Below the pieces are notes generated by a model. That model did no database searches and was not told where the DNA came from. It saw only the letters and a list, made by a program, of their open reading frames with translations. Below are positions 2,930 to 53,936 of a DNA stretch of 53,936 bases, one piece after another (positions within the stretch are counted from its first letter, which is position 1; the number at the start of each line of letters is the position of its first letter). The DNA comes from Patescibacteria group bacterium. Lineage in GTDB: Bacteria; Patescibacteriota; Patescibacteriia; GWA2-47-26. The position numbers were made by a program, and so were the translations under genes. The stretch is taken from the NCBI GenBank assembly GCA_038064355.1, contig JBBTTG010000019.1, forward strand, positions 1-53,936. The letters run 5' to 3'.

Positions 2930-3033
2930 CATCGCCTTCCCCCTTTGAAAAAGGGGGATTGAGGGGGATTTTCTCCAACCTGTTGCATAAATCCCTCGGC
3001 CTTCGGCCACTCCCTTTTTCAAAGGGAGAGAAA
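2930..3033. repeat. Family-G element, inverted relative to the copy at 39788-39925
   Basis: CCCCCTTTGAAAAAGGGGGATTGAGGGGGATTTTCTCC...CCCTCGGCCTTCGGCCACTCCCTTTTTCAAAGGGAGAG is the reverse complement of the 39.8 kb copy. Confidence 0.8.
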
Positions 3034-3372: not shown

Positions 3373-4314
3373 TCAGTGTGAGCGTTTAGTATCTATAATT
3401 GCCAACCGATTAAGACCTGCAAGGTCTTTTTTTATTTTGATTTTGCAGGAGGGGAAATAGTGGCGGGCGAGGGTTTGAATGTCGTCGGATTGGTGGGGGC
3501 AAATTTCAAAAATTAAGTAAGTAGCGTGTAGGGAGTAGCGTGTAGAAAATTCCTTGAGCTGTTTCAAGAGGGTGCGGTAGTAGGTGAGGCCGTCTGGGCC
3601 GCCGTCCAGGGCGAGGCGGGGTTCATAGTGGCGCACGTCAGGCGGGGATTGCCGCCATTCGGAAGTTGGAAGATAAGGGAGGTTGGCGGTGATAAATAGC
3701 GTGTAGGGAGTAGCGTGTAGGGAGTAGACACGCAGGAAAGGCTCAAGAAGGTTGATATACAGGAAGGTGATATTTTTTTCGACGCCATGGAGGCGGGCGT
3801 TTTTGCGGGCGACGGTGAGTGCGGAGCGGGAGGCGTCGGTGGCGAAAAATTCAATTCCCCTCACCTCCATCCTCTCCCCGGAGGGGAGAGGGAGGGGAGA
3901 GGGGGCGAGGAGTTTGGCAAGAGCAATAATAACACACCCGCTACCGGTGCCGATGTCGATGATAACAGTTGGTAGCTTGTAGCTGGTAGCGAGTAGGTTG
4001 AGGGATTCTTTCACCATCAGTTCCGTCTCGGGGCGGGGAATGAGGACGCGCTTGTCCACGCAAAAATCCAATCCGTAAAATTCTTTGTGGCCGGTGATGT
4101 AGGCCACCGGCTCGTGCTTGGCGCGCCGTTTGATCAGTTTGCCGTAGGTAGCCGACTGTGAGCGTTGGAGATTGTATTCAGGATGAGCAAACAGTGTCTC
4201 CTTCGTGATTTTGAGTGTATGCGCGAGCAGTATTTCCGCATCGAGCGAGGCGGATTTGATTTTCGCAGATTGAAGACGGCTAGTGCCCCAGAGGAGAGCC
4301 TCTCGCGAGGTCAT
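3373..4314 (-). CDS. prmC: Release-factor glutamine methyltransferase PrmC/HemK, carrying several repeat-derived segments
   Basis: SAM motif IDIGTGSGCV. Other motifs are PRPETE and NLPY (in the NPPY position). It sits directly downstream of prfA. At 313 aa it is about 35 aa longer than typical PrmC. Confidence 0.9.
   Translation of the reverse strand: MTSREALLWGTSRLQSAKIKSASLDAEILLAHTLKITKETLFAHPEYNLQRSQSATYGKLIKRRAKHEPVAYITGHKEFYGLDFCVDKRVLIPRPETELMVKESLNLLATSYKLPTVIIDIGTGSGCVIIALAKLLAPSPLPLPSGERMEVRGIEFFATDASRSALTVARKNARLHGVEKNITFLYINLLEPFLRVYSLHATPYTLFITANLPYLPTSEWRQSPPDVRHYEPRLALDGGPDGLTYYRTLLKQLKEFSTRYSLHATYLIFEICPHQSDDIQTLARHYFPSCKIKIKKDLAGLNRLAIIDTKRSH
3518..3545. repeat. Heptanucleotide NNNGTAG tract (4 units) inside prmC
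   Basis: TAAGTAG CGTGTAG GGAGTAG CGTGTAG, translated on the minus strand as RYSLHATY. Confidence 0.85.
3693..3727. repeat. Heptanucleotide NNNGTAG tract (5 units) inside prmC
   Basis: TAAATAG CGTGTAG GGAGTAG CGTGTAG GGAGTAG, translated as VYSLHATPYTLF. It ends four codons upstream of the NLPY motif. Confidence 0.85.
3857..3908. repeat. Family-B GC-rich palindrome inside prmC
   Basis: CCTCTCCCCGGAGGGGAGAGG core, translated as PSPLPLPSGERMEVRG. It is about 85 percent identical by eye to the eno copy. Confidence 0.85.
3969..3996. repeat. Heptanucleotide NNNGTAG tract (4 units) inside prmC
   Basis: TTGGTAG CTTGTAG CTGGTAG CGAGTAG, translated as LATSYKLP just before the SAM-binding motif. Confidence 0.8.
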
Positions 4315-4315
4315 A

Positions 4316-5383
4316 TTATTCCTCGTCCTCTATGTCAGTCTCGCCGCGTTGAAGCGAGGTGATGACATCGTTGATATCGCCATCAAGAATGCCAGGCAAG
4401 CCATGCCAGCTTTTCTTGATGCGGTGGTCCGTCAGGCGGTCCTGGGGGACGTTGTAGGTGCGGATTTTTTCCGAGCGCTCTCCCGTGCCGATCTGTGAAC
4501 GGCGCGCCTCGGACCGTTCGCGGTGGCGCTTTTCTTGTTCAAGCGCGTAGAGGCGCGAGCGCATGACCTGCATGGCCCGTACGCGGTTTTGCTGTTGGGA
4601 GCGTTCGTCTTGGCAGGAGACGACGAGCCCCGTGGGGATATGGGTGATGCGGATGGCGGAGTAGGTTGTATTGACCGATTGCCCGCCGTGCCCGCCGGCC
4701 GTGGATGTTTCGATTTTTAAATCTTTCGGATCCACCTTGAAATCCATTTCTTCCACTTCGGGGAGTACGGCAACGGTGGCAGTTGAGGTGTGCACGCGCC
4801 CCGCTTTTTCGGTTTCCGGGATGCGTTGGACGCGGTGCACGCCGCTTTCGTGTTTCAGCGCGCGATACGCGTTGCGGCCCTCAATGAGGAATACAACTTC
4901 TTTGAAACCGTCGATATCGGTGCGGTTGGAAGAGAGGAGCCGAGTCGACCATCCTTGGCGTTCGGCGAAACGGCTGTACATGCGAAAAAGATTGCCGGCA
5001 AAGAGCGCGGCCTCATCGCCTCCGGTGCCCGCGCGGATTTCCACAATGATATTCTTCTTATTCATCGGATCAGCCGGATGCAGGAGTTCGGCGAGTTCAG
5101 TTTGTAGTTTGTAGTTTGTAGTTTGTAGTGTTTTGATCTCCTCTTCGGCAAGGGAGCGCAATTCCGTATCTGTTGTTTCCCGGAGCGTTTTTTCTATATC
5201 CTCCACGACGCGGGTATTGGTATCTATCCGTTCCGCGAGATCGAGAATTTCTCTCAACTCGTCGTATTCCTTGGAAAGCGCGCGCAAACGCTCCGGATCC
5301 GCAAGGGTGTCCGGTTGGCTCATAAGCGTTTCAAGCTCTTGGGCGCGTTTTTGATTTTTTTGTATTTCCGGGAGGAAATTCAT
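4316..5383 (-). CDS. prfA: Peptide chain release factor 1
   Basis: GGQ motif ([11 protein letters not shown]), RF1-type PxT tripeptide (RIPETEK) and [11 protein letters not shown]. The start was chosen at MNFLPEIQ; the ORF-track start at 5407 is also possible. Confidence 0.93.
5101..5128. repeat. Perfect tandem heptamer (TTTGTAG)x4 inside prfA
   Basis: Four identical units, translated on the minus strand as [10 protein letters not shown]. Confidence 0.95.
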
Positions 5384-5443
5384 ACCAATAGAAAAAGCCA
5401 CAAACATTGTAACACGGCGAATGTTACTCTGTCTGTGGCTTTC

Positions 5444-5799: not shown

Positions 5800-5834
5800 G
5801 GTATAGGGAGTAGGCGGTAGCGTGTAGACAGTAA
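5800..5834. repeat. Heptanucleotide NNNGTAG tract (5 units), intergenic
   Basis: GGTATAG GGAGTAG GCGGTAG CGTGTAG ACAGTAA, located between the terminator and rpmE. Confidence 0.8.
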
Positions 5835-5868
5835 AAAAACGGACCCGAGGGGAAACCCTAGGGTCCGT
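5833..5868 (-). terminator. Rho-independent terminator of the lipoprotein gene
   Basis: On the minus strand: ACGGACCC-TAGGGTTTCCCC-TCGGGTCCGT followed by TTTTTTT. Confidence 0.75.
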
Positions 5869-8015: not shown

Positions 8016-8339
8016 TCCCCGTCATGTTTTCGCGTTTCTCGCTCCGCTCTTGACAATTTTTCGTCCTCGTGATGATATATTGGTAAGAGTGTTCGTTCTG
8101 TCTGCATTGCATCTGGTTGGCGGCCTCTGAATATTCCCCATCCCCGCGACATCCCTCCCCTCCCCGCGTGGCGTGGTTCAGGAAGTTCATTGGTCGTCCA
8201 ACCGTTTTCTTGGCCGTATGGTCATAAGGTTTGTTTTTTCAACGAAAGCGTCGTAACCCCCCCCGCAAACGACATTCGCTGGAGAGACACTCACTGTGAC
8301 TATACTGGCCAACTTTTGTTTATAATCGAGTTGTAATTT

Positions 8340-8460
8340 GAGACCGTAGAAAAACGCGATCTGCTTTGTTGAAACCTGCGGTATTCGCTCACCGTACCTT
8401 TCAGTACGGCTCGCTCACTCCTCGGTTTCGCCTCGCATCTCATCGTTTTTCTACAGTCTC
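8340..8460. repeat. Family-D MITE-like element (121 bp)
   Basis: Identical by eye to 19068-19188. It has roughly 20 bp terminal inverted repeats AATTTGAGACCGTAGAAAAA / TTTTTCTACAGTCTCAA and a central hairpin CCGTAC-CTTTCA-GTACGG. Confidence 0.9.
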
Positions 8461-8941
8461 AATTTCGCGGTCATGATTTCGCAAAGTCCCTGTAGCCGGT
8501 TTTTTCGCTACCAGGATTTGCCCAAAATGTGGTGGACTGATACAACGATTTGACTTTCTCCGCCAGGTGTGGTTTACTGAGCTATAAGCTTCGTTCTGTT
8601 CGACAATCGATGAGGTTGGTGACCTGGCGGTTTCCGCAAAATCCCTCTCTCCTTTCTGTTCTACTCTGGCTCATGCTCTGGTTCATACATGGCAATTGCG
8701 GATCCGTCGGTCACCAACCTTTGCTCTTTTCGCTGGGCTGAAGCCTTGGAAAGAAAGATGAACCGAAAATTGATCCCCCCCTCGACATGCGGTTCGGTGA
8801 ATTCTTTCCCCAAGGTTTCGGCCTTTTTTATTTTTTGTCCAGAATACCCCATGGCTTGCCATGGGGATGAATGGAAACAAAAAATAAAACCCCGCCTTGG
8901 CGGGGTCATATTACCGCACCGCAAGCAGTGTGATAATTGAT

Positions 8942-19057: not shown

Positions 19058-19067
19058 TATGTAATTT

Positions 19068-19188
19068 GAGACCGTAGAAAAACGCGATCTGCTTTGTTGA
19101 AACCTGCGGTATTCGCTCACCGTACCTTTCAGTACGGCTCGCTCACTCCTCGGTTTCGCCTCGCATCTCATCGTTTTTCTACAGTCTC
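19068..19188. repeat. Family-D MITE-like element inserted between rpsB and tsf
   Basis: Identical by eye to 8340-8460. Confidence 0.9.
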
Positions 19189-19229
19189 AAATTGTTCCCC
19201 GCGAAATTTTTTTTGCAACATTTTTATAT

Positions 19230-21441: not shown

Positions 21442-22707
21442 ATGAACGAATTTTTTCTCAAAACGTCCGAATTTGATTACCCTTTACCCGAGCGGCTCAT
21501 TGCGCAGAAGCCGTTTTCGCCGCGCGATTGTTGCCGTCTGCTTGTTTTGCATCGCGAGAGCGGGAAGATGGAACACCGGAAATTCTTTGATATTACGGCA
21601 TATCTTCGCGCGGGTGATGTGCTTGTGCTCAACGACAGCCGTGTTTTTAAAGCGAGACTTTTTGGAAGATTGTCATTGCGAGGAGCGGGGCGACGAAGCA
21701 ATCCCGTCCAAGTACAAGATCGCCGCGCCTCGCCTGCGGTGAAGCTCGCGATGACAGAGAAAAAGATAGAGGTATTTTTGTTGAGGGAAGTTGATAAAAC
21801 GGGAACATGGGAAGCGTTGGGAAATCCCGGGAAAAAATTAAAAGACGGGGTGAAGGTTTCTTTTTCAAAAACCGTCGAGTGTGAAGTCATCGGGAAGCGT
21901 GAAGGGAAATATCTGGTGCGTTTTAATATCCGCGGCTTGGCTTTTCAAAAGTTTTTGGCGCGGTATGGCCATGTGCCCATTCCTCCTTATATAGGGAAGG
22001 AGCCAAAAGACGCCGGAGACTATCAAACCGTCTATGCGCGGCAGAGCGGGTCAGTCGCCGCTCCGACGGCCGGGTTTCATTTCACGAAACGCCTTTTAAA
22101 AAAGATTGAGCGCATGGGAGTGGAGGTGCGATATATCACTTTGCATGTCGGATATGGAACATTTAAGCTCGTGAAATCCGAAGAGGTGAGCGCGCATAAG
22201 ATGGAAGAAGAGTGGGTGGAAATTTCGGCAGAGACCGCACGAGCGATTTCGCGCGCCAAGAGCGAGGGCAGGAGAGTGGTTGCCGTTGGGACGACGACAG
22301 TCAGAGCGCTTGAGGGATACTCCCTGATTAGTCATCGCGAGGAGCCGAAGGCGACGCGGCGATCCCGTACTCGAAACGAGATTGCTTCTCCGCCAAAGGC
22401 GGATCGCAATGACATTCTTTCGGCCTACTCCGGTCCTGTAAATATATTCATCTACCCCCACACCAAAAATTTTGGTGTGGGGGTAAACCCGGGCTATAAG
22501 TTTCAAATCGTTGACGCGCTGGTGACCAATTTTCACCTGCCAAAATCCACTCTGCTCGTGCTCGTTTCCGCCTTCGCGAAATCCCCCCTCTCCCTTGATG
22601 GGAGAGGGCAGGGTGAGGGTGTCATTTTGATCAAAACCGCCTACCAAGAGGCAATCAAGAAAAAATATCGCGTTTATTCGTTTGGAGATGCGATGATAAT
22701 TGTGTAG
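21442..22707 (+). CDS. queA: S-adenosylmethionine:tRNA ribosyltransferase-isomerase, with four in-frame palindromic insertions
   Basis: FDYPLPERLIAQKP, PIPPYI, YQTVYA, AAPTAGFHFT, VGTTTVRALE, VDALVTNFHLPKSTLLVLVSAF, YRVYSFGDAM. The start was trimmed to MNEFFLK. Confidence 0.93.
   Translation: MNEFFLKTSEFDYPLPERLIAQKPFSPRDCCRLLVLHRESGKMEHRKFFDITAYLRAGDVLVLNDSRVFKARLFGRLSLRGAGRRSNPVQVQDRRASPAVKLAMTEKKIEVFLLREVDKTGTWEALGNPGKKLKDGVKVSFSKTVECEVIGKREGKYLVRFNIRGLAFQKFLARYGHVPIPPYIGKEPKDAGDYQTVYARQSGSVAAPTAGFHFTKRLLKKIERMGVEVRYITLHVGYGTFKLVKSEEVSAHKMEEEWVEISAETARAISRAKSEGRRVVAVGTTTVRALEGYSLISHREEPKATRRSRTRNEIASPPKADRNDILSAYSGPVNIFIYPHTKNFGVGVNPGYKFQIVDALVTNFHLPKSTLLVLVSAFAKSPLSLDGRGQGEGVILIKTAYQEAIKKKYRVYSFGDAMIIV
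21671..21756. repeat. Family-C element inside queA
   Basis: TGTCATTGCGAGG...CTCGCGATGACA, translated as LSLRGAGRRSNPVQVQDRRASPAVKLAMT between the conserved LFGR and KKIEVF. Confidence 0.9.
22330..22414. repeat. Family-C element inside queA, read in a different frame from the first copy
   Basis: AGTCATCGCGAGG...GGATCGCAATGACAT, translated as ISHREEPKATRRSRTRNEIASPPKADRNDI. Confidence 0.9.
22455..22483. repeat. Perfect 14 bp-arm palindrome inside queA
   Basis: CCCCCACACCAAAA-A-TTTTGGTGTGGGGG, translated as PHTKNFGVGV inside the conserved IYP-GYKF segment. Confidence 0.85.
22581..22621. repeat. Family-B GC-rich palindrome inside queA
   Basis: CCCTCTCCC-TTGAT-GGGAGAGGG followed by CAGGGTGAGGG, translated as PLSLDGRGQGEG. 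Confidence 0.8.
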
Positions 22708-22806
22708 TATTGCCGTTTTTGTTTGATTTTTTAGTGTGCTATACTATTGGTAACTGGGGTAACTGAATAATCGAATCATTCAACAACGAAAGAGTATGGG
22801 AATTCT

Positions 22807-22834
22807 ATTTGTCATTTGCCATTTGTAATTTTTA
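22807..22834. repeat. Heptanucleotide tract (ATTTNNN x4) just upstream of a start codon
   Basis: ATTTGTC ATTTGCC ATTTGTA ATTTTTA. Confidence 0.75.
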
Positions 22835-22840
22835 TCGCTT

Positions 22841-23031: not shown

Positions 23032-24297
23032 ATGAAACTACACACCATTCGAGAAATAGACATGCGAGCACTTCGCGGGAAGCGGGTGCTTTTGCGTGTG
23101 GATTTTAACGTGCCAATGGGGGAAAAGGGCGTGTTTGACGATACGCGGATGCGCGCGGCATTGCCCACGATCAATTATCTTCGTCGCGCGGGAGCCAAGA
23201 TGATTCTTGTCTCGCATCTCGGGCGGCCGGCGCCCGCCTCGAGCTCGCGGCTCACCCCTGCCCAATTTCAGACCATTTGCAAAAAGAATAAGATGTTCAG
23301 TTTGAAACGTGTCGCGTCATACCTTGAGACGCTCACGCAGGGTGTGAGATTTGCCGACGATCCGATCGGGAGCGAGGCGCTTGCGCGGACGCTTGGAGCC
23401 GCAAAAGATGGGAGTGTCACACTTTTGGAAAATATCCGTTTCTATCCCGGGGAGGAGAAGAACGACGCGAAGTTTGTAGAGGCGCTGGCGGAGCTTGCGG
23501 ATTTTTTTGTCAACGACGCGTTTTCAGCCTCACACCGGGCGCATGCTTCTGTCGCGGGAGTGGCGAAATTACTCCCTTCGTATGCCGGTTTGCTCGTGGA
23601 AAAAGAAGTGGAGGCGCTTGGCGGACTTTTAGGCAAACCCAAGACGCCGTTTGTGGTGATGCTTGGCGGCGCAAAGATTGCCGACAAGGTGGGGGTGATT
23701 CGGAGTCTCTCAAAGCGTGCGGATAAGATTCTCCTTGGGGGCGCGCTCATCAATAGTTTTTACATGGCGATGGGGTGCGATGTTGGTGCGTCGATGGTGG
23801 AAGAGAAGGGGATACAGATAGTCAAACGCTTGCTCAAGAATAAAAAAATCGTTTTGCCGACGGATGTAGTGGTGGGTGATGTGCGGGATCCCGGGCGGAA
23901 TGGGTACGTGGTCAATCTGAATTTGCGTCGCGGCAACGGCAAGAAAGAAGTGGGGATTATCTGTTCGGCGCCGTATGCTATCTATGACATTGGCCCAAAA
24001 ACGATCTTGGAGTACGCGAAGGTGATTAAAAAGGCGAAGACCTTGGTGTGGAACGGTCCGCTCGGTATGTATGAGATTGAAAAATTCAGCCATGGCACCT
24101 TGGCATTGGGAAGACTCTTTGCCTCGCGTTCCTGCGGGCGTGCCTTTGGCATTGCGGGCGGCGGCGAGACGCTTCACGCGCTGAAACTCACAGGGATGGG
24201 TTCGTGCGTGGACTGGATTTCCACCGGCGGGGGTGCTATGCTTGAATTCTTGGAAGGAAAGACCTTGCCGGGATTAAAACTGTTGCTGAAGAAATAA
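23032..24297 (+). CDS. pgk: Phosphoglycerate kinase
   Basis: RVDFNVP, ILVSHLGRP, NDAFSASHRAHAS, LGGAKIADK, WNGPLGMYE, STGGGA. Confidence 0.95.
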   Translation: MKLHTIREIDMRALRGKRVLLRVDFNVPMGEKGVFDDTRMRAALPTINYLRRAGAKMILVSHLGRPAPASSSRLTPAQFQTICKKNKMFSLKRVASYLETLTQGVRFADDPIGSEALARTLGAAKDGSVTLLENIRFYPGEEKNDAKFVEALAELADFFVNDAFSASHRAHASVAGVAKLLPSYAGLLVEKEVEALGGLLGKPKTPFVVMLGGAKIADKVGVIRSLSKRADKILLGGALINSFYMAMGCDVGASMVEEKGIQIVKRLLKNKKIVLPTDVVVGDVRDPGRNGYVVNLNLRRGNGKKEVGIICSAPYAIYDIGPKTILEYAKVIKKAKTLVWNGPLGMYEIEKFSHGTLALGRLFASRSCGRAFGIAGGGETLHALKLTGMGSCVDWISTGGGAMLEFLEGKTLPGLKLLLKK

Positions 24298-24325
24298 TTT
24301 TGCATTTTTAACTTTTGACTTTTTA
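24298..24325. repeat. Heptanucleotide tract (YTTTTNA x4) forming the pgk-SIMPL spacer
   Basis: TTTTGCA TTTTTAA CTTTTGA CTTTTTA, then CCTAT and the ATG. Confidence 0.75.
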
Positions 24326-24330
24326 CCTAT

Positions 24331-25104
24331 ATGTTCTGGCCTACCTGGAGGGAAAATAAATTATTCACCGCGCTTCTTGGTCTTGTGGGCCTTGGGGTCG
24401 TGTTGCTCCTGGGGGTAAAGACCATGAATGGTTTCAAGGAGAATGCGTTTATCGGAAAACCCGAGATTCGCGACATGATTACGATTGAAGGAGAGGGGAA
24501 GGTCGCTGGCGTCCCGGAAATCGCGGTTATCGGTGTCGGGATTTCTACGGAGAATAAGGAGGTCGTGAAAGCGCAGACTGAAAATAATACAAAAATGACT
24601 ACGCTCATCGGCCGCGTCAAGGGATTCGGCGTGGACAGCAAGGATATTCAGACGACCAATTATTCCCTCTCTCCGCAGTATGAATGGCCGGATGGAAAGC
24701 GGGTGTTGCGCGGGTATCGGGTGACCCAAGAGGTGCAGGTAAAGATCAGGGATTTGGGAAAGATCGGCGCTATCCTTTCCTCGGTAGGCGAGTCGGGAGC
24801 CAATCAAGTATCGGGTGTTTCTTTCACTATCGACGATCCGGAAACGCTTCGCGAGCAGGCACGCGAGAAGGCGCTTGAGAATGCCAGAGCAAAAGCCAAA
24901 TCGGTGGCAGAGAAAGCGGGCGTGAAGCTCGGAAAGCTTGTGACTTTCAGCGAGTATTCCCCGAGCGGATCGACGTATTATAAAGGGTTTGATTCTTATG
25001 CAATGGGCCTCGGCGGTGCTACAGAAGCCGCGGCACCAGCACCGGTGGAGAGCGGAAGTTTGGATATCGTGGTCAATGTAAATGTCACATACGAAATCCT
25101 GTAG
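24331..25104 (+). CDS. SIMPL/DUF541 domain protein with an N-terminal TM anchor
   Basis: ITIEGEGKV...TTNYSLSPQYEW...GYRVTQEVQVKIRDL...SGSLDIVVNVNVTYEI. Confidence 0.8.
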   Translation: MFWPTWRENKLFTALLGLVGLGVVLLLGVKTMNGFKENAFIGKPEIRDMITIEGEGKVAGVPEIAVIGVGISTENKEVVKAQTENNTKMTTLIGRVKGFGVDSKDIQTTNYSLSPQYEWPDGKRVLRGYRVTQEVQVKIRDLGKIGAILSSVGESGANQVSGVSFTIDDPETLREQAREKALENARAKAKSVAEKAGVKLGKLVTFSEYSPSGSTYYKGFDSYAMGLGGATEAAAPAPVESGSLDIVVNVNVTYEIL

Positions 25105-25125
25105 TCAGTAGACGGTAGTCTGTAT
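25098..25125. repeat. Heptanucleotide NNNGTAG tract spanning the SIMPL stop and the eno start
   Basis: CCTGTAG TCAGTAG ACGGTAG TCTGTAT. The TAG at 25102-25104 is the SIMPL stop, and the eno ATG begins at 25124. Confidence 0.85.
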
Positions 25126-26425
25126 GCGTATTCAAAGTATTCATGCCTACGAAATATTGGACTCGCGCGGGAATCCGACCGTGCGGGTGAGGGTGCGCCT
25201 GAAAGATGGTTCCGAGGGAGTCGCCTCGGTGCCTTCGGGCGCCTCGACCGGCGTGCATGAAGCGCTCGAACTTCGCGATGGAGACAAAAAGCGCTATGGC
25301 GGCAAGGGGGTGCAAAAGGCGTGCCGATTTGTGAATAAAATCATGGCTCCAAGGATTGCCGGTATGGCGGTGGAGGATCAACGAGTCATAGATGGTTTGA
25401 TGTGCGAGCTCGATGGGACAAAGCACAAGTCGCATTTTGGAGCTAATGCTATTTTGGGTATATCGCTTGCCTGCGCGCACGCGGGTGCGGCATCGGCCAA
25501 GCTCCCGCTTTATCGCTACCTCCGCAAAATCTACTCTCTCCACGCTACTCCATACAGGTTGCCCCACCCAATGATGAACATCCTTAATGGCGGACGGCAC
25601 GCGGATTGGAGTTTGGATTTGCAGGAGTGCATGATCGTGCCCGGGCAGAAGAAGTTTTCCGATCGCCTGCGTTGCGGCGCGGAGGTTTTTCATGCGTTGT
25701 ATGATATCTTGAAGAAACGAGGGCTTACGGTCGGTGTGGGCGACGAAGGGGGATATGCGCCGCGTTTAAAAAGCAATGAAGAGGCTTTTCGTCTCATCGG
25801 CGAGGCGGTGCAAGCGGCGGGATATATGTATGGAAAACAAGTGAAGGTGGCGATTGATGCCGCGGCCTCGGAGTTCTATAACGGAAAAACAGGACGTTAT
25901 GAGATGAATGTGGATAAGAAAAAATTGAGCTCGGATGAGCTGGGAAAACTCTATAGACGATGGATGAAGCAGTATCCGCTGATTTCCCTTGAGGATCCAT
26001 TTGCCGAAGATGATTGGGACGCGTGGAAGAAGTTTACTCATCAACTTTCCTCACCCTTCCCTCTCCCCAGAGGGGAGAGGATTAAGGTGAGGGGGAAAGG
26101 CACCATGATCGTTGGAGATGATCTTTTCGTAACGAATGTTGAGCGTTTAAAGAAAGGGATAGAAATGGGAGTGGGGAATGCCATTCTTATCAAGGTCAAT
26201 CAGATAGGCACGCTCTCCGAGACCATGGATGCGATTGATCTGGCGCGAAAACATGATTACCGCGTGATCCTTTCTCACCGCTCGGGTGAGACCGCGGATA
26301 CGACGATCGCGGATTTGGCCGTGGCGGTGAATGCCGACTACATCAAGACCGGAAGCCTCTCGCGCAGCGAACGCGTGGAAAAATATAATCGATTGCTGGA
26401 GATTGAGTCGGAAGTGAGTTTGTGA
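25124..26425 (+). CDS. eno: Enolase, with two repeat-derived segments
   Basis: ILDSRGNPTV, SGASTG, PMMNILNGG, GDEGGYAP, VGDDLFVTN, IKVNQIGTLSET, SHRSGETAD. Confidence 0.96.
   Translation: MRIQSIHAYEILDSRGNPTVRVRVRLKDGSEGVASVPSGASTGVHEALELRDGDKKRYGGKGVQKACRFVNKIMAPRIAGMAVEDQRVIDGLMCELDGTKHKSHFGANAILGISLACAHAGAASAKLPLYRYLRKIYSLHATPYRLPHPMMNILNGGRHADWSLDLQECMIVPGQKKFSDRLRCGAEVFHALYDILKKRGLTVGVGDEGGYAPRLKSNEEAFRLIGEAVQAAGYMYGKQVKVAIDAAASEFYNGKTGRYEMNVDKKKLSSDELGKLYRRWMKQYPLISLEDPFAEDDWDAWKKFTHQLSSPFPLPRGERIKVRGKGTMIVGDDLFVTNVERLKKGIEMGVGNAILIKVNQIGTLSETMDAIDLARKHDYRVILSHRSGETADTTIADLAVAVNADYIKTGSLSRSERVEKYNRLLEIESEVSL
25531..25558. repeat. Heptanucleotide tract (CTACNNN orientation) inside eno
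   Basis: CTACTCT CTCCACG CTACTCC ATACAGG, translated as YSLHATPYR. prmC carries the same peptide. Confidence 0.85.
26048..26097. repeat. Family-B GC-rich palindrome inside eno
   Basis: CCTCACCC-TTC-CCTCTCCCC-AGA-GGGGAGAGG-ATTAA-GGTGAGGG, translated as SSPFPLPRGERIKVRG before VGDDLFVTN. Confidence 0.9.
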
Positions 26426-26469
26426 TAGAGTGGAATAAGGAAACTAAAGTTCAAGAGTTCAATTTTTTA

Positions 26470-26793
26470 ATGTATAGTATGTCCATGGACCATGAATCAA
26501 ACCAAGAGATTTTGGAAGCAATCCATGAATTTTCTACGCATGTTGACACGCGCTTTGAAGACGTGAACAAGCGCTTTGAAGACGTGACTCAAGAGATAGG
26601 CAAGGCTAAAATTGACATCCTTGACGCCGTAGACGACAAGTTGGTCAATCTCAAGGGTGATTTGATTTTACTTATGCGCAGTGAAGATAAAAAACTTTTG
26701 TATTTGGTGCAGGTATTGAAAAACAAAAAAATCTTGACTGAAGAAGAAACCCGCAATATCTTGAAACTGCAACCGTTCCCGCAGGCTCTTTAG
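26470..26793 (+). CDS. Small coiled-coil protein, paralog of 34425-34829
   Basis: EILEAIHEFSTHVDTRFEDVNKRFEDV...LQPFPQ aligns with the 34.4 kb gene. The start is uncertain (26422-26485). Confidence 0.6.
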   Translation: MYSMSMDHESNQEILEAIHEFSTHVDTRFEDVNKRFEDVTQEIGKAKIDILDAVDDKLVNLKGDLILLMRSEDKKLLYLVQVLKNKKILTEEETRNILKLQPFPQAL

Positions 26794-26873: not shown

Positions 26874-27030
26874 ATAGGACTTACGCACTTGACCTCTTTC
26901 TGTCATCCTCGCGAATGCGGGGATCCAGTATCCAGGCTCCTTTCCGAGGCCTGGATTCCCGCTGGAGTTTACCCCGCACTGGTGCGGGGCGGGAATGACA
27001 CCCCTAAATGGGTTTTTGCGTAAGTTCTAT
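26874..27030. repeat. Composite element: family-E termini enclosing a family-F palindrome
   Basis: Termini are ATAGGACTTACGCACTTGACC ... TGCGTAAGTTCTAT. The interior is TGTCATCCTCGCGAATGCGGGGATCCAG...GCGGGGCGGGAATGACA. Confidence 0.8.
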
Positions 27031-34244: not shown

Positions 34245-34377
34245 GAGACTGTAGAAAAACTCTTAAAAATCACTTCCTTCTGTCATTCCCGCGAAAGCGG
34301 GAATCCAGAAACCACTTCAAACCTGGATCCCCGCTTTCGCGAGGATGACAGAAAGAGGTCAAGTGCGAAGTCCTATA
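34245..34377. repeat. Chimeric element: D-type left end, family-F core, E-type right end
   Basis: GAGACTGTAGAAAAA..., then TGTCATTCCCGCGAAAGCGGGAATCCAG...GAGGATGACA, then ...GGTCAAGTGCGAAGTCCTATA. Confidence 0.8.
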
Positions 34378-34424: not shown

Positions 34425-34829
34425 ATGACGGAAAATACGCCGCCGACCAGCCAGGAAATTTTGCCGACCATTCAGGATGTTCTTGAGGCCGTAAACGAGT
34501 TTGCCAGTCATGTAGACAAGCGGTTTTCGGATATAGACAAGCGGTTTTCGGATATAGACAAACAGTTTTCGGGTATAGACAAACAGTTTTCGGGTATTCG
34601 CGAAGAGATGGCGACAAAGAGTGATCTCAACCGTTTTAAGCTAGACTTGATTGATGTCATAGATGAGAAGAACGCCGATCTCAAGGCTGATCTTACTATC
34701 CTTATGAGAAAAGAAGATAAGAAGGTGGTGAGTTTGATTGATCTTTTGCGAAAAAAATCCGTCATTGATAATACAGAGGCGGCAAAGATTCTTGGTATGG
34801 ATCCGTTTCCGCAGGATGTGGTTATATAA
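34425..34829 (+). CDS. Small coiled-coil protein, paralog of 26470-26793
   Basis: EILPTIQDVLEAVNEFASHVDKRFSDIDKRFSDIDKQFSGIDKQFSG...MDPFPQ. Confidence 0.65.
   Translation: MTENTPPTSQEILPTIQDVLEAVNEFASHVDKRFSDIDKRFSDIDKQFSGIDKQFSGIREEMATKSDLNRFKLDLIDVIDEKNADLKADLTILMRKEDKKVVSLIDLLRKKSVIDNTEAAKILGMDPFPQDVVI
34512..34595. repeat. 21 bp tandem repeat x4 inside the coiled-coil gene
   Basis: GTAGACAAGCGGTTTTCGGAT / ATAGACAAGCGGTTTTCGGAT / ATAGACAAACAGTTTTCGGGT x2, encoding the heptad DKRFSDI / DKQFSGI. Confidence 0.95.
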
Positions 34830-37800: not shown

Positions 37801-39786
37801 TTCATACAGGAGGTAAAGGGCACCAGCGCGGCAACGACTTTGGCCGACTTCACCTTGTCCATGTCGAAAAACGGAGGGGCGTATAACGATTTGATTTCTG
37901 TTGATGAAGCGGGAAACCTGGCGATTCTGAACCAGCCGGCACAAATCCAATTCGCCAATGGCCAGTATTTTCAGGATAATAACAACGGAGGATTGAATAT
38001 TTATTCCCCGGCGGCATTGAATTTCTCTCTTGGGGCAAGCTATCCGAATACGAGTCCAATTTGGGGAGTCACGGGCGGCACAAGGACGGCCGGCGCGGCG
38101 GACGACAAAGGTTTCAGCTTTACCAATACGCTTAATGATTCCTCCACCGCCGGTGGAGAATCCTATACGGCGTTCTTTGTAAACATCACCGAAACCAACA
38201 AGACGGGCTGGCCAACGGTAAACCTGATGGATTTGCAGGTTGGCGCGGTGAGCAAGTTTCTTGTGAATGACGCGGGAGGTATAACAAGCGCAGGCGGACA
38301 AACATCAATCACACCCACTTTTTCCGTTGCTTCCGCCGCCGGGGCGGTCTATAACGGCCTCACTATTCCCGCCACAACGATGACATTGTCGGGTTCAACT
38401 GGTGTTACCACCGCAACAGGATTCAATCTGATAAACATTGCAATTCCCAATATCGCCACGACTGATGCGAACGCCGATGTTACCAATACGGCAACGGTTT
38501 ACATTGCCGGCGCTCCGACCATTTCCGGAGGCGGGGCGATTACGAATTCCTACTCTTTGTGGGTTGATGCGGGAACGGTGAGGTTTGATGGAGCGGTTAT
38601 TATGGGCGGACTTGCTTCGGGCACGGGCGGCGGCACCTATGATGCTATTTGTTTGAATACCGCCGACAATGCGCTTACCGTGAATACCAACGGAGACGAT
38701 TGTGTTGTTTCTTCGCGACGGTTTAAAGAGAATATTGCGAATCTTGATCTTGGTCTCTCGTTCATTAACGCTTTGACTCCAAGGCAGTTTAATTACATCG
38801 GAGAAGGCGATTCGCGCGTCGGATTCATCGCTGAAGAAGTGGCGGCAATTGATTCACGTCTCATGTTTTATGAAAATGATGGAGTTACCGCGCGCGGTGT
38901 CAGGTATCAGGATATGACAGCCGTGCTTACAAAAGCGGTGCAGGAACAGCAGGCGCAGATACAGAAGTTAACGTTAGATTTACAGGGGTTATTGAATGGA
39001 GGCGGGTCATCCTCGTCAGGCGGGTCGGCCTATACCGCCGGATATTGGTCGCTTGACGACAAGGGGAACCTGGTCGCGGATAAGGCGATTGGATTGAAGG
39101 TTTCCACGAGCAAGGGTGAGCGGACGCTGATGGCGCTTCTTGGCGCCAAAGCGGAGCTTATGCTTTCCGGAAGCTCGGAGCTGGTGGGCGGAGAGAGGAG
39201 GATTTATTTTCAAGAGTTTGATGAGACCTTCGCCGAGCTCGTTTCCGCGACTACACCGTTTAAGGTCTTACTTACACCCACTTCGTCCACACAAGGTCTC
39301 TATATTGCCGAAAAAATCAAAGAACTGGTTGAGGGTCGGGAGCGTTATGTTGGTTTTCGTGTAAAGGAGCAGGGAAGCGGCACATCTTCCGGTACATTTG
39401 ATTGGGTGGTGGTGGCGGTGCGCGAGGGTTTTGAAGGGGATGCGCCGGTGGTGCCGGCAGTGGCGGCGCCGATAGCAAACCCCTCACCCCAACCCTTTCC
39501 CACAGGGGGAGAGGGAGACGCGACAGAACAATCGCCAGTTGAACCAGTCGCGCCCGTAGCTCCGGTTGAGCAGGCGGCTCCTGTTGTTCCCGTTGAACCG
39601 GTAGCGCCCATTGAGCCGATAACTCCGGTTGAACCCGCACCTGTTGCTCCGTCTGCTCCCGTTGCACCACCGATTGTTCCCGAAGTGCCAGTCGAGCCCA
39701 TAGCACCAGTGGAACCGGCGGCTCCTATTGAAGAACCTGTCGCTCCGATTGAACCACCGGCAACCGCTGAACCCCCAGCGACTTAA
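34852..39786 (+). CDS. Giant secreted/anchored tail-fibre-like surface protein (1644 aa) with an internal peptidase-S74 intramolecular-chaperone domain
   Basis: - AAGGAGG SD upstream.
- N-terminal TM/signal segment.
- Tail-fibre-like motif [39 protein letters not shown].
- Three roughly 90-aa modules ending in [27 protein letters not shown].
- S74-like segment [12 protein letters not shown]...VGFIAEEV...[24 protein letters not shown] at about 38710-38975.
- Pro-rich PVEPxAP tail. Confidence 0.8.
39478..39520. repeat. Family-B-like GC-rich palindrome inside the giant gene
   Basis: CCCTCACCCCAACCCTTTCCCACAGGGGGAGAGGGAG, translated as [14 protein letters not shown]. Confidence 0.6.
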
Positions 39787-39787
39787 A

Positions 39788-39925
39788 CGGTTCTCTCCCT
39801 TTGGAAAAGGGAGTGGCCGAAGGCCGAGGGATTTGCGTCAATGGTTTTGGGAAAATCCCCCTTAATCCCCCTTGTTTCTCCGCCAGAGGCGGATCCGCCT
39901 CTGGCGGAGAAGGGGGAAGTCAAAA
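39788..39925. repeat. Family-G element with a nested perfect palindrome (39868-39909)
   Basis: CTCTCCCTTTGGAAAAGGGAGTGGCCGAAGGCCGAGGG...AAAATCCCCCTTAATCCCCCTT, interrupted by CTCCGCCAGAGGCGG-AT-CCGCCTCTGGCGGAG. Confidence 0.8.
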
Positions 39926-40206: not shown

Positions 40207-40267
40207 TTGTCATTCCAGCGGAAGCGGGAATCCAGGCCTGGACCCCGCATCAAGTGCGGGGTGACAA
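40207..40267. repeat. Family-F palindromic element
   Basis: TTGTCATTCCAGCGGAAGCGGGAATCCAGGCCTGGACCCCGCATCAAGTGCGGGGTGACAA. Confidence 0.8.
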
Positions 40268-42919: not shown

Positions 42920-43004
42920 AATCCCGTCATTCTCCCCACCAATCCCGTCATTCCCGCGCAGGCGGGAATCCAGGCATAGACCCCCGCTTTCGCGAGGGTG
43001 ACAG
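42920..43004. repeat. Family-F element with a partial duplication of its left end
   Basis: AATCCCGTCATTCTCCCC, then AATCCCGTCATTCCCGCGCAGGCGGGAATCCAGG...CGCGAGGGTGACAG. Confidence 0.8.
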
Positions 43005-43013
43005 ATTAACTTC

Positions 43014-43194
43014 TATAGGACTTACGCGCTTCCGCCCGGGAGTCCTGTAATTGTGGAACTTCCCATGGCGGAAGCCACAGGGGTTTGACCAATCTCTTCG
43101 TTAAAAGGCTCTGCTCTTGCTCGCCGTAGCTCTACTACGCCTCGCAACATCCTCGCCTTTTGCCTCGACCTTGGTCAAACGCGTAAGTCCTATT
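43014..43194. repeat. Family-E MITE-like element (about 180 bp) with perfect 14 bp terminal inverted repeats
   Basis: ATAGGACTTACGCG ... CGCGTAAGTCCTAT. Its first 66 bp recur at 53871-53936 with two mismatches. Confidence 0.9.
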
Positions 43195-43408: not shown

Positions 43409-43930
43409 ATGGCGAAAACAAAAGAGCAAAAAGAGGGCGCCTTTAGTGATCTCTTGGAGAGGCTTGAGCATATGAAGTCTGCCGTCATCGTGAGCTTTTC
43501 GGGCCTCAAAGTAAAAGACGCGCAGAAATTGCGCGAGAAGTCCTGGAAGAGCGGTGTCGAATACGCGGTGGTGAAGAAAACCCTGCTCGGGATCGCGCTC
43601 AAGAAAGCGGGTCTCGCGGAGGTCGATATTAAATCGTTCACAGGGAATGTGGCAGTGGCCTTTGGTCTCGAAGATGAGACGAGCGCCCCAAAATTGATTG
43701 CCGAATTCGCGAAGGAGAATGAAGCGATGAAGATACTCGGCGGGTTATTGGGAAAACAATATATCCCCGTCGCCGGCGTAAAATCCCTGGCGAGTCTTCC
43801 CGGAAAACAGGAGTTGCTTGGACAGTTGGTCGGCACCATTGCGGCGCCCATGTCCGGAATGCTCAATGTCCTTCAGGGAAATATTCGAGGGCTTGTACAG
43901 GTGCTTCATGCGATCAGTAAGAAATCCTAA
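43409..43930 (+). CDS. rplJ: 50S ribosomal protein L10
   Basis: [22 protein letters not shown]...YAVVKKTLL. The start was trimmed to MAKTKEQK. Confidence 0.92.
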
Positions 43931-43943
43931 TCCCTAATCCCTA
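43923..43943. repeat. Heptanucleotide tract (AATCCTA ATCCCTA ATCCCTA) spanning the rplJ stop
   Basis: Three units; the TAA at 43928-43930 is the rplJ stop. Confidence 0.75.
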
Positions 43944-43947
43944 CTTT

Positions 43948-53870: not shown

Positions 53871-53936
53871 TATAGGACTTCCGCGCTTCCGCCCAGGAGT
53901 CCTGTAATTGTGGAACTTCCCATGGCGGAAGCCACA
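53871..53936. repeat. Family-E element, left part (cut by the window end)
   Basis: TATAGGACTTCCGCGCTTCCGCCCAGGAGTCCTGTAATTGTGGAACTTCCCATGGCGGAAGCCACA matches 43014-43079 with two mismatches. Confidence 0.9.

Follow-up and report, generated by a model that had tools for sequence, protein, structure and literature searches.

A peptide shared by PrmC and enolase of a Patescibacterium is probably the translation of a heptanucleotide tandem repeat

The window analysed here is a complete contig of 53,936 bp from a metagenome-assembled genome (MAG) of Patescibacteria, the candidate phyla radiation (CPR). It encodes two unrelated enzymes, the release-factor glutamine methyltransferase PrmC and enolase (gene eno), which share the peptide YSLHAT(PY). 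Our analysis indicates that this peptide probably results from translation of a tandem repeat of heptanucleotides (NNNGTAG, or CTACNNN on the complementary strand), which slippage or conversion might have generated and spread. The repeat is of a known kind, the heptanucleotide simple-sequence repeats such as the short tandemly repeated repetitive (STRR) sequences and the TAACTGA repeats, found in an unusual and apparently undescribed coding setting. Heptanucleotide repeats are usually treated as intergenic; in this case, translation continues through them within essential enzymes of reduced-genome Patescibacteria.

Results

One nucleotide repeat in prmC and eno

The sense strand of the translated copies carries CTACNNN, mostly as the 14-nt double unit CTACTCC-CTACACG. 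The sequence CGTGTAGGGAGTAG occurs in three exact copies, all within prmC (starts at 3525, 3700, and 3714 on the + strand), and in three copies with two mismatches, starting at 5800 (+), 25531 (-), and 25545 (-). Six matches were thus observed compared with 0.08 expected in dinucleotide shuffles, and none of 100 shuffles reached six. The 14-nt repeat at two places in prmC and in eno, as claimed in a preliminary description made from the sequence alone, is thereby borne out. The tracts are translated as STRYSLHATYLIF and RVYSLHATPYTLF in PrmC and as KIYSLHATPYRLP in enolase. The eno copy is the same as the prmC 28-mer at 24 of the 28 positions, including 10 of the 12 variable positions (P about 4e-5).

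The PrmC and enolase of the contig match NCBI proteins of 'Patescibacteria group bacterium' at 100%. Moreover, an independent 3-kb contig in ENA encodes PrmC and the release factor RF1 (prfA) that are 99% identical to those of the window, with identical tract lengths. Misassembly of the tracts, the concern raised in the preliminary description, is unlikely because of this second assembly. The copy starting at 5800 had been described as untranslated, and it very probably is, because it lies between a hairpin with a T-run and a promoter-like site of rpmE. A terminator scan at 5836-5866 did not flag the hairpin and T-run, though they are visible in the sequence.

Any reading frame gives the same periodic peptide

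Translation of (CTACTCCCTACACG)n in three frames gives cyclic permutations of one 14-residue peptide, LLPTRYSLHATPYT. Every frame yields one periodic peptide because 7 and 14 are not multiples of three. The GTAG strand, on the other hand, has TAG in every frame and is therefore closed to translation, so that coding copies need CTAC on the sense strand, where we found it in all five translated arrays of the contig. Since any frame gives LLPTRYSLHATPYT, unrelated proteins that carry the unit share peptide words automatically. The preliminary description had emphasised that the three copies are read in the same frame. They do share the exact register, for which the chance is about 1 in 9, but the argument is nearly automatic, since the frames are cyclic permutations of each other and the other strand is closed. 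A protein-database search with the cyclic peptide (TRYSLHATPYTL...x3; 69 candidates, 2 short open reading frames (ORFs)) was uninformative as a census of host proteins. A slippery heptamer for -1 frameshifting was also considered and rejected, as there is no X XXY YYZ pattern.

Period-7 arrays on the contig

The repeat turned out to be wider than first stated, belonging to a class of heptanucleotide repeats. Our array census, which covers the ~54-kb contig, gave about ten period-7 arrays (13 overlapping calls), five of them translated (three in prmC, one in prfA, and one in eno) and five intergenic (Table 1). Four of the five intergenic arrays adjoin start codons. The preliminary description had overlooked the third GTAG array in prmC, the array in prfA, the GTAG array upstream of eno, and, ahead of start codons, three arrays built from other units. 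The array upstream of eno takes in the SIMPL stop codon, closes all three frames with TAG, and extends into the ATG of eno.

Tandem Repeats Finder reported periods of 7 or 14. With a match threshold of 66%, there are 13 period-7 arrays in the window versus 1.5 in shuffles, and with a threshold of 72%, there are 4 versus 0.3. The related metagenome loci (574 kb; individual loci are designated below by L and a number) contain 57 period-7 arrays versus 4 in shuffles, and periods of 5, 8, 10, and 11 give 11-17. GTAG itself is under-represented on the contig (96 occurrences versus about 210 expected), yet it recurs in six runs, each of 3-4 copies spaced by exactly 7 nt.

Table 1. Host genes and heptamer arrays of the contig (positions in the window)
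Feature	Positions	Strand	Description
prmC (release-factor glutamine methyltransferase)	3373..4314	-	ORF; HemK/PrmC matches in PDB; 100% NCBI Patescibacteria PrmC; hosts three heptamer tracts
prmC tract C	3521..3545	-	sense CTACACG CTACTCC CTACACG CTAC, translated as (T)RYSLHAT(Y); end of helix 244-259, loop 260-261, start of strand 262-270 (predicted)
prmC tract B	3696..3727	-	sense (CTACTCC CTACACG)x2 + CTA, translated as VYSLHATPYTL; period 14, 2.2 copies, 100% matches
prmC tract A	3969..3996	-	+ strand TTGGTAG CTTGTAG CTGGTAG CGAGTAG, translated as LLATSYKLPT; 75% to reference copy; helix end and loop before GTGSG strand (predicted)
prfA (RF1)	4316..5407	-	ORF; RF-1/PCRF genes at syntenic position in relatives; hosts one perfect tract
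prfA tract	5099..5129	-	perfect (ACAAACT)4.4; + strand (AGTTTGT)4.4; sense (CTACAAA)n, translated as QTTNYKLQT
Degenerate copy, very probably untranslated	5800..5827	+	GGTATAG GGAGTAG GCGGTAG CGTGTAG; 71% to reference copy
Other-unit heptamer array (ATTTGTC/ATTTGCC)	22803..22836	+	ends 4 nt before ATG of 62-aa ORF
Heptamer array (TTTTGCA/CTTTTGA-like)	24295..24331	+	occupies pgk-SIMPL spacer as far as ATG
GTAG array upstream of eno	25098..25125	+	CCTGTAG TCAGTAG ACGGTAG TCTGTAT
eno (enolase)	25124..26425	+	hosts one degenerate heptamer tract
eno tract	25531..25558	+	CTACTCT CTCCACG CTACTCC ATACAGG, translated as (I)YSLHATPYR; coil linking N-terminal domain to barrel (predicted)
Heptamer array (AATCCCT/CCTAATC)	43922..43946	+	occupies rplJ-rplL spacer as far as ATG

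Structural setting of the tracts

AlphaFold models of PrmC and enolase have a mean predicted local distance difference test (pLDDT) score of 88.8 and 89.4, respectively. The three PrmC tracts are predicted at helix ends and loops leading into the β-strands 116-121, 204-210, and 262-270, with the pLDDT falling to 73 at residues 191-200 in the region of tract B. Tract B corresponds to the loop preceding the strand with the NPPY-type motif (NLPY). Considering the general features of the Rossmann fold, we assume that the tracts lie on the face away from the cofactor site. In the enolase model, the tract is the coil (residues 137-147) that joins helix 129-136 of the N-terminal domain to the first strand of the barrel. 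Comparison with PDB structures indicated that the regions of tracts B and C are 5 and 7 residues longer than in HemK from T. maritima, and that the enolase region is 5 residues longer. The models thus support a location of the tracts at tolerant linkers. About 50 CPR orthologues of the enolase were compared, and in most of them the tract is equally long. Removal of the tracts in the manner of inteins was also considered and rejected, as they are too short and the enolase linker is confidently modelled.

The same sites carry different units in orthologues

In an alignment of CPR PrmC proteins, other low-complexity peptides stand at the three tract positions. At the DNA level, prmC orthologues carry arrays of CAATTCT and CGTTACY in L001, AAATACA and AAATTGA in L002, and CTACTCA/CTACTAC in L003, and arrays with other units are also present in L039, L043, L051, L068, and L109. 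Among 83 prmC genes (80 further metagenome loci in addition to L001-L003), 14 of the 19 period-7 arrays fall within the three intervals that this contig sets; the corresponding figure for the independent set is 8 of 13 (binomial P = 6e-4). The DNA of the eno tract in relatives is likewise a heptamer array, with the unit CCTACGC in L033, whose enolase is 82% identical, and CTACAAC/CTACAAG in L034. The prfA segment has equal length in six genomes, of which four have a heptamer array (CTACAAA in two, AAATTAA in one, and AAATCTA in one) and two have ordinary codons; the tract of the window has the length of the ordinary-codon stretch at the same position in L001 and L002. Because orthologues hold arrays at the same sites and the eno and prfA lengths equal those of relatives, the tracts are not recent insertions here. 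The array positions appear to be old and common to orthologues, and the unit sequence seems to turn over in a lineage-specific manner.

Arrays of the GTAG type among Patescibacteria-type loci were found only in the nearest relatives, L003/L034, L033, and L115. The array directly before eno has an 18-nt core, GTAGTCAGTAGACGGTAG, that is identical in L033, where the array has extra whole units, as slippage would give. In this closest relative, a gene with a 23S_rRNA_IVP domain (L033 782-1150) stands between the upstream gene and eno, and the pre-eno GTAG array is still kept. Some relatives have other inserts at the PrmC loops: short palindromic inserts replace the heptamers at site A in L003 and at sites A and B in L115 and L116, for example GGGTTCCCGATACCC...GGGTATCGGGAACCC in L115. 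Several kinds of small repeats are therefore accepted at these loops.

Certain units recur between genomes. AATTACC arrays are present in four Patescibacteria-type contigs (L001 3216-3260, L002 5179-5211, L113 5216-5261, and L034 17220-17266), and those in L001 and L002 lie in the orthologous tsf-rpsB spacer beside a GTAACGN array. The recurrence of AATTACC, and also of GATTCAA, TTTTGAC, and ATTGCGG units, suggests a limited vocabulary of heptamers.

Exchange and homogenisation between arrays

Between the window and L033, the flanks of the eno tract, 150 nt on each side, are 79-81% identical, whereas the tract is 60% identical over 30 nt (18/30), with 16/28 in the core. This value is near the baseline from the shared CTAC core, and the same tract has 24/28 identity to tract B of prmC in its own genome. 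Each array is homogeneous in its variable trinucleotides: those of L033 are all GCC, AAC alternates with AAG in L034, and TCC alternates with ACG in the window. One unit is found at two prmC sites of the same genome also in L001 (CAATTCT) and L043 (GATTCAA/GATACAA). In a k-mer test, sharing of 9-10-mers was 3-4 times commoner within a genome than between genomes (p about 1e-7), which lends weak support since it is confounded by base composition and AT-rich units. Exchange of units between loci is the best reading of the eno tract pattern, and turnover or conversion between arrays might have brought it about.

The preliminary description had proposed that the repeat spread by insertion, slippage, or gene conversion into tolerant loops. 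The tolerant linkers and the exchange between loci are in line with this proposal; insertion into repeat-free loops is not, given the orthologous arrays and the equal lengths. The tracts would rather replace older arrays than invade repeat-free loops.

Occurrence in other phyla

We searched for the 18-mer GTAGGGAGTAGCGTGTAG in a GTDB-representative collection, which does not include the source genome; the organism names below are as labelled in the records. The 18-mer occurs 31 times in 29 loci and always sits inside longer SGNGTAG arrays except for one case (L020, Rudanella), in which the repeat does not continue into the flanks. The hosts are three Nitrospirota MAGs (one with 11 loci), several Gammaproteobacteria-labelled MAGs, a Gemmatimonadaceae MAG (71-72% GC), a Saccharibacteria MAG, and Crocosphaera chwakensis. 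In many cases an inverted CTACNNN array comes next, and the flanking sequence is sometimes common within a genome. Arrays lie just upstream of start codons in L017, L025, and L028, and in-frame translation is found in a pyruvate kinase barrel (ATRYSLHATPPP), a LepA-like GTPase domain (MSYSLHATPYTLN), and a class II tRNA-synthetase-like protein (TTLHATPYMLHAS). The 18-mer was absent from the viral contigs searched, giving no sign of a phage vector, and neither the window nor 13 array-bearing loci matched any Rfam family.

In the Nitrospirota MAG CAZEYP01 (L005, L015, L016, L021, and L029), the GTAG arrays are preceded by AAAAAGACAGGGT and followed by AATTCTA-type heptamers, and in the Gemmatimonadaceae loci L013 and L014, the GTAG array is preceded by GAACGGCAAC and followed by a GC-rich hairpin. 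With such common flanks within each genome, the GTAG arrays there look like parts of larger dispersed elements.

Other repeats on the contig

A second repeat common to prmC and eno is the GC-rich GER palindrome, CCCCTCACC...CTCTCCCC-GGGGAGAG...GGTGAGGGG, located at 3857-3902 in prmC and 26049-26094 in eno, and also at 39480-39517 and 22573-22610. It is translated as PSPLPLPSGERMEVRG and SPFPLPRGERIKVRG, inserts of 15-16 residues that have pLDDT below 50 and are found neither in PDB homologues nor in enolase P0126, which is 82% identical. The GER palindrome looks like a recent in-frame insertion resembling a Rickettsia palindromic element (RPE).

Further repeats were noticed. A 134-nt repeat in three copies with 74-99% identity (2626-2759, 8332-8465, and 19060-19193) has 22-nt terminal inverted repeats, AATTTGAGACCGTAGAAAAACG / CGTTTTTCTACAGTCTCAAATT, and looks like a miniature inverted-repeat transposable element (MITE). 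A hairpin repeat family, GTCATTCCCGCGAAAGCGGGAATCCAG, is present in both orientations, sometimes as adjacent inverted pairs (2786-2827, 26884-26928, 34272-34367, 40209-40246, and 42947-43005). Another dispersed family is represented by an 83-nt inverted pair with 77% complementarity (2948-3032 / 39791-39876), which contains tandem AGGGGGATTG / AATCCCCCTT. There are 21-nt tandem repeats at 34513-34597, with 4.0 copies of TAGACAAACAGTTTTCGGATA (95% matches), and at 26546-26587, where another unit occurs in 2 copies within the ORF 26422..26793. Finally, a 66-nt direct repeat (43014-43079 / 53871-53936) is 97% identical, and its second copy terminates exactly at the contig end.

Discussion

The shared peptide could have originated in the following way. 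The arrays might arise and become homogenised through slipped-strand or transient-misalignment copying inside an array, and short-patch conversion between arrays of the same genome with the common CTAC core could contribute too. Selection would then retain only stop-free and frame-preserving versions, at linkers that tolerate almost any sequence. Several points weigh against this account. No slippage or conversion event was observed directly, and the four tracts of prmC and prfA do not differ in unit number between the two 99%-identical assemblies. Slippage by a single unit would frameshift essential genes, and homogenisation at constant length would therefore need conversion, misalignment patches, or steps of +/-21 nt. 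Arrays of 25-35 nt are also short for RecA-type conversion. Furthermore, neutral slippage does not predict an identical 18-mer in arrays of unrelated phyla and a recurring vocabulary of units; the recurrence across phyla hints at a sequence-specific factor or horizontal spread.

The arrays might instead be functional nucleic-acid elements, with the coding copies as by-products or extra sites, either bound as triplets in a HutP-like manner or serving as unstructured leaders in place of Shine-Dalgarno (SD) sequences. The start-codon placement of four intergenic arrays of the window, without obvious SD sequences, would fit such a role, as would the same placement in L017, L025, and L028 and for TAACTGA repeats (PMC4679880), the recurrence of the unit across phyla, and the binding of NAG triplets with 4-nt spacers, (NAG-N4)x3, by HutP (PMC2425495). 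However, any array in a 20-40-nt spacer of a compact genome necessarily adjoins a start codon, both orientations are found upstream of starts, the coding copies show CUAC and not UAG on the mRNA, no cognate protein was identified, with the genome represented by the 54-kb contig, and Rfam gave no match. We consider a functional role of this kind unlikely.

There is also a small chance that an active, sequence-specific process keeps the arrays, such as conversion from master arrays, a 'repeat writer' that uses a template, or an SGNGTAG family that spreads horizontally. If so, the same linkers of essential proteins would be repeatedly overwritten with genome-specific cassettes of 7-residue period, and the same units would be set before start codons. 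One family would then be common to Patescibacteria, Nitrospirota, Gammaproteobacteria, Gemmatimonadota, and cyanobacteria.

It seems rather improbable that a small mobile element comparable to RPEs or MITEs recently inserted in frame, independently in prmC (twice) and in eno. Such insertion could explain one nucleotide unit in unrelated genes and at an intergenic site, and tracts 5 to 7 residues longer than the corresponding regions of solved structures; the GER palindrome would be an example of such insertions in this genome. Nevertheless, the tracts, 25-32 nt long, consist purely of direct 7-nt repeats and have no terminal inverted repeats or target duplications, arrays are already at the same positions in orthologues, and the eno and prfA tract lengths match those of relatives.

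Phase-variable contingency repeats or assembly artefacts are very improbable. Tandem repeats with units that are not multiples of three are classic frameshift switches and trouble spots for assembly, but prfA, prmC, and eno are single-copy housekeeping genes with intact frames, in place of the dispensable genes with switching unit number of contingency loci; the tract lengths are identical in the independent assembly, and same-site arrays occur in orthologues from many assemblies. That PrmC and enolase converged on YSLHATPY as a protein motif under selection, for instance a site of binding or modification, is hardly credible, because the identity holds at the nucleotide level with synonymous positions included, untranslated copies exist, and quite different peptides occupy the same sites in orthologues, even though the same peptide is found in five or more unrelated enzymes.

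Translation of a heptanucleotide repeat would account for the odd peptides that CPR proteins share and for their variation in length, and it cautions against reading such peptide matches as homology or motifs. The same linkers with lineage-specific units provide a natural test system for slippage alone versus exchange between loci. That one unit recurs in distant phyla makes it a sharper question why certain heptamers spread.

Comparison with known systems

The arrays of the contig consist of head-to-tail 7-nt units in three or more copies, with an excess of period 7 over shuffles and over other periods not divisible by three, as in the heptanucleotide class. The cyanobacterial STRR and GGGAATC repeats and the long simple-sequence repeats (LSSRs) are similarly heptanucleotide tandem repeats over-represented relative to other unit lengths, with slippage as the proposed origin. 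Unlike those, which are described as intergenic and under-represented in coding regions, the present repeats are read through in prmC, prfA, and eno of a small-genome Patescibacterium, and five of about ten arrays are coding. According to Mrazek et al. 2007, as cited in PMC4679880, no long simple-sequence repeats are more abundant in most genomes than the heptanucleotide ones, for which polymerase slippage was proposed. GGGAATC repeats were reported to be over-represented in non-coding regions (Rehm et al., PMC4692102). In the collection of papers searched, we found no report linking heptamer repeats with Patescibacteria or CPR.

RPEs are selfish DNA elements that insert into protein-coding genes while keeping the frame (reviewed in PMC10969869). 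The tracts resemble them in that one nucleotide repeat is translated in frame in unrelated metabolic genes at positions compatible with the fold. RPEs are, however, palindromic mobile elements of ~150 bp with presence/absence polymorphism, whereas the tracts are direct arrays of 25-32 nt with no inverted repeat, and orthologues carry arrays of the same length where an empty site would be expected for an RPE or a MITE. The GER palindrome in prmC and eno is a better analogue of RPEs than the heptamer tracts. The likeness to the HutP operator, namely UAG spacing with period 7, holds only for the forward array before eno, as the coding copies give CUAC, and it is a lead only.

A close parallel is provided by the TAACTGA repeats of marine Beggiatoaceae, cyanobacteria, and Bacteroidetes, which MacGregor 2015 (PMC4679880) described directly upstream of start codons with an unexplained cross-phylum distribution. 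Both consist of 7-nt tandem units in short arrays (2-6 copies for TAACTGA), and TAACTGA arrays stand mostly directly upstream of start codons without SD sequences. Forward TAACTGA copies close all three frames with stops and reverse copies are translated (PMC4679880), giving a 7-residue periodic peptide as here, and one unit is found in unrelated phyla without a known vector. The present repeats differ in having a variable half, NNNGTAG, compared with one fixed heptamer. Half of the arrays of the contig are at internal linkers of conserved enzymes, whereas TAACTGA copies are found at protein termini or in hypothetical ORFs, and the positions here are common to orthologues with lineage-specific units.

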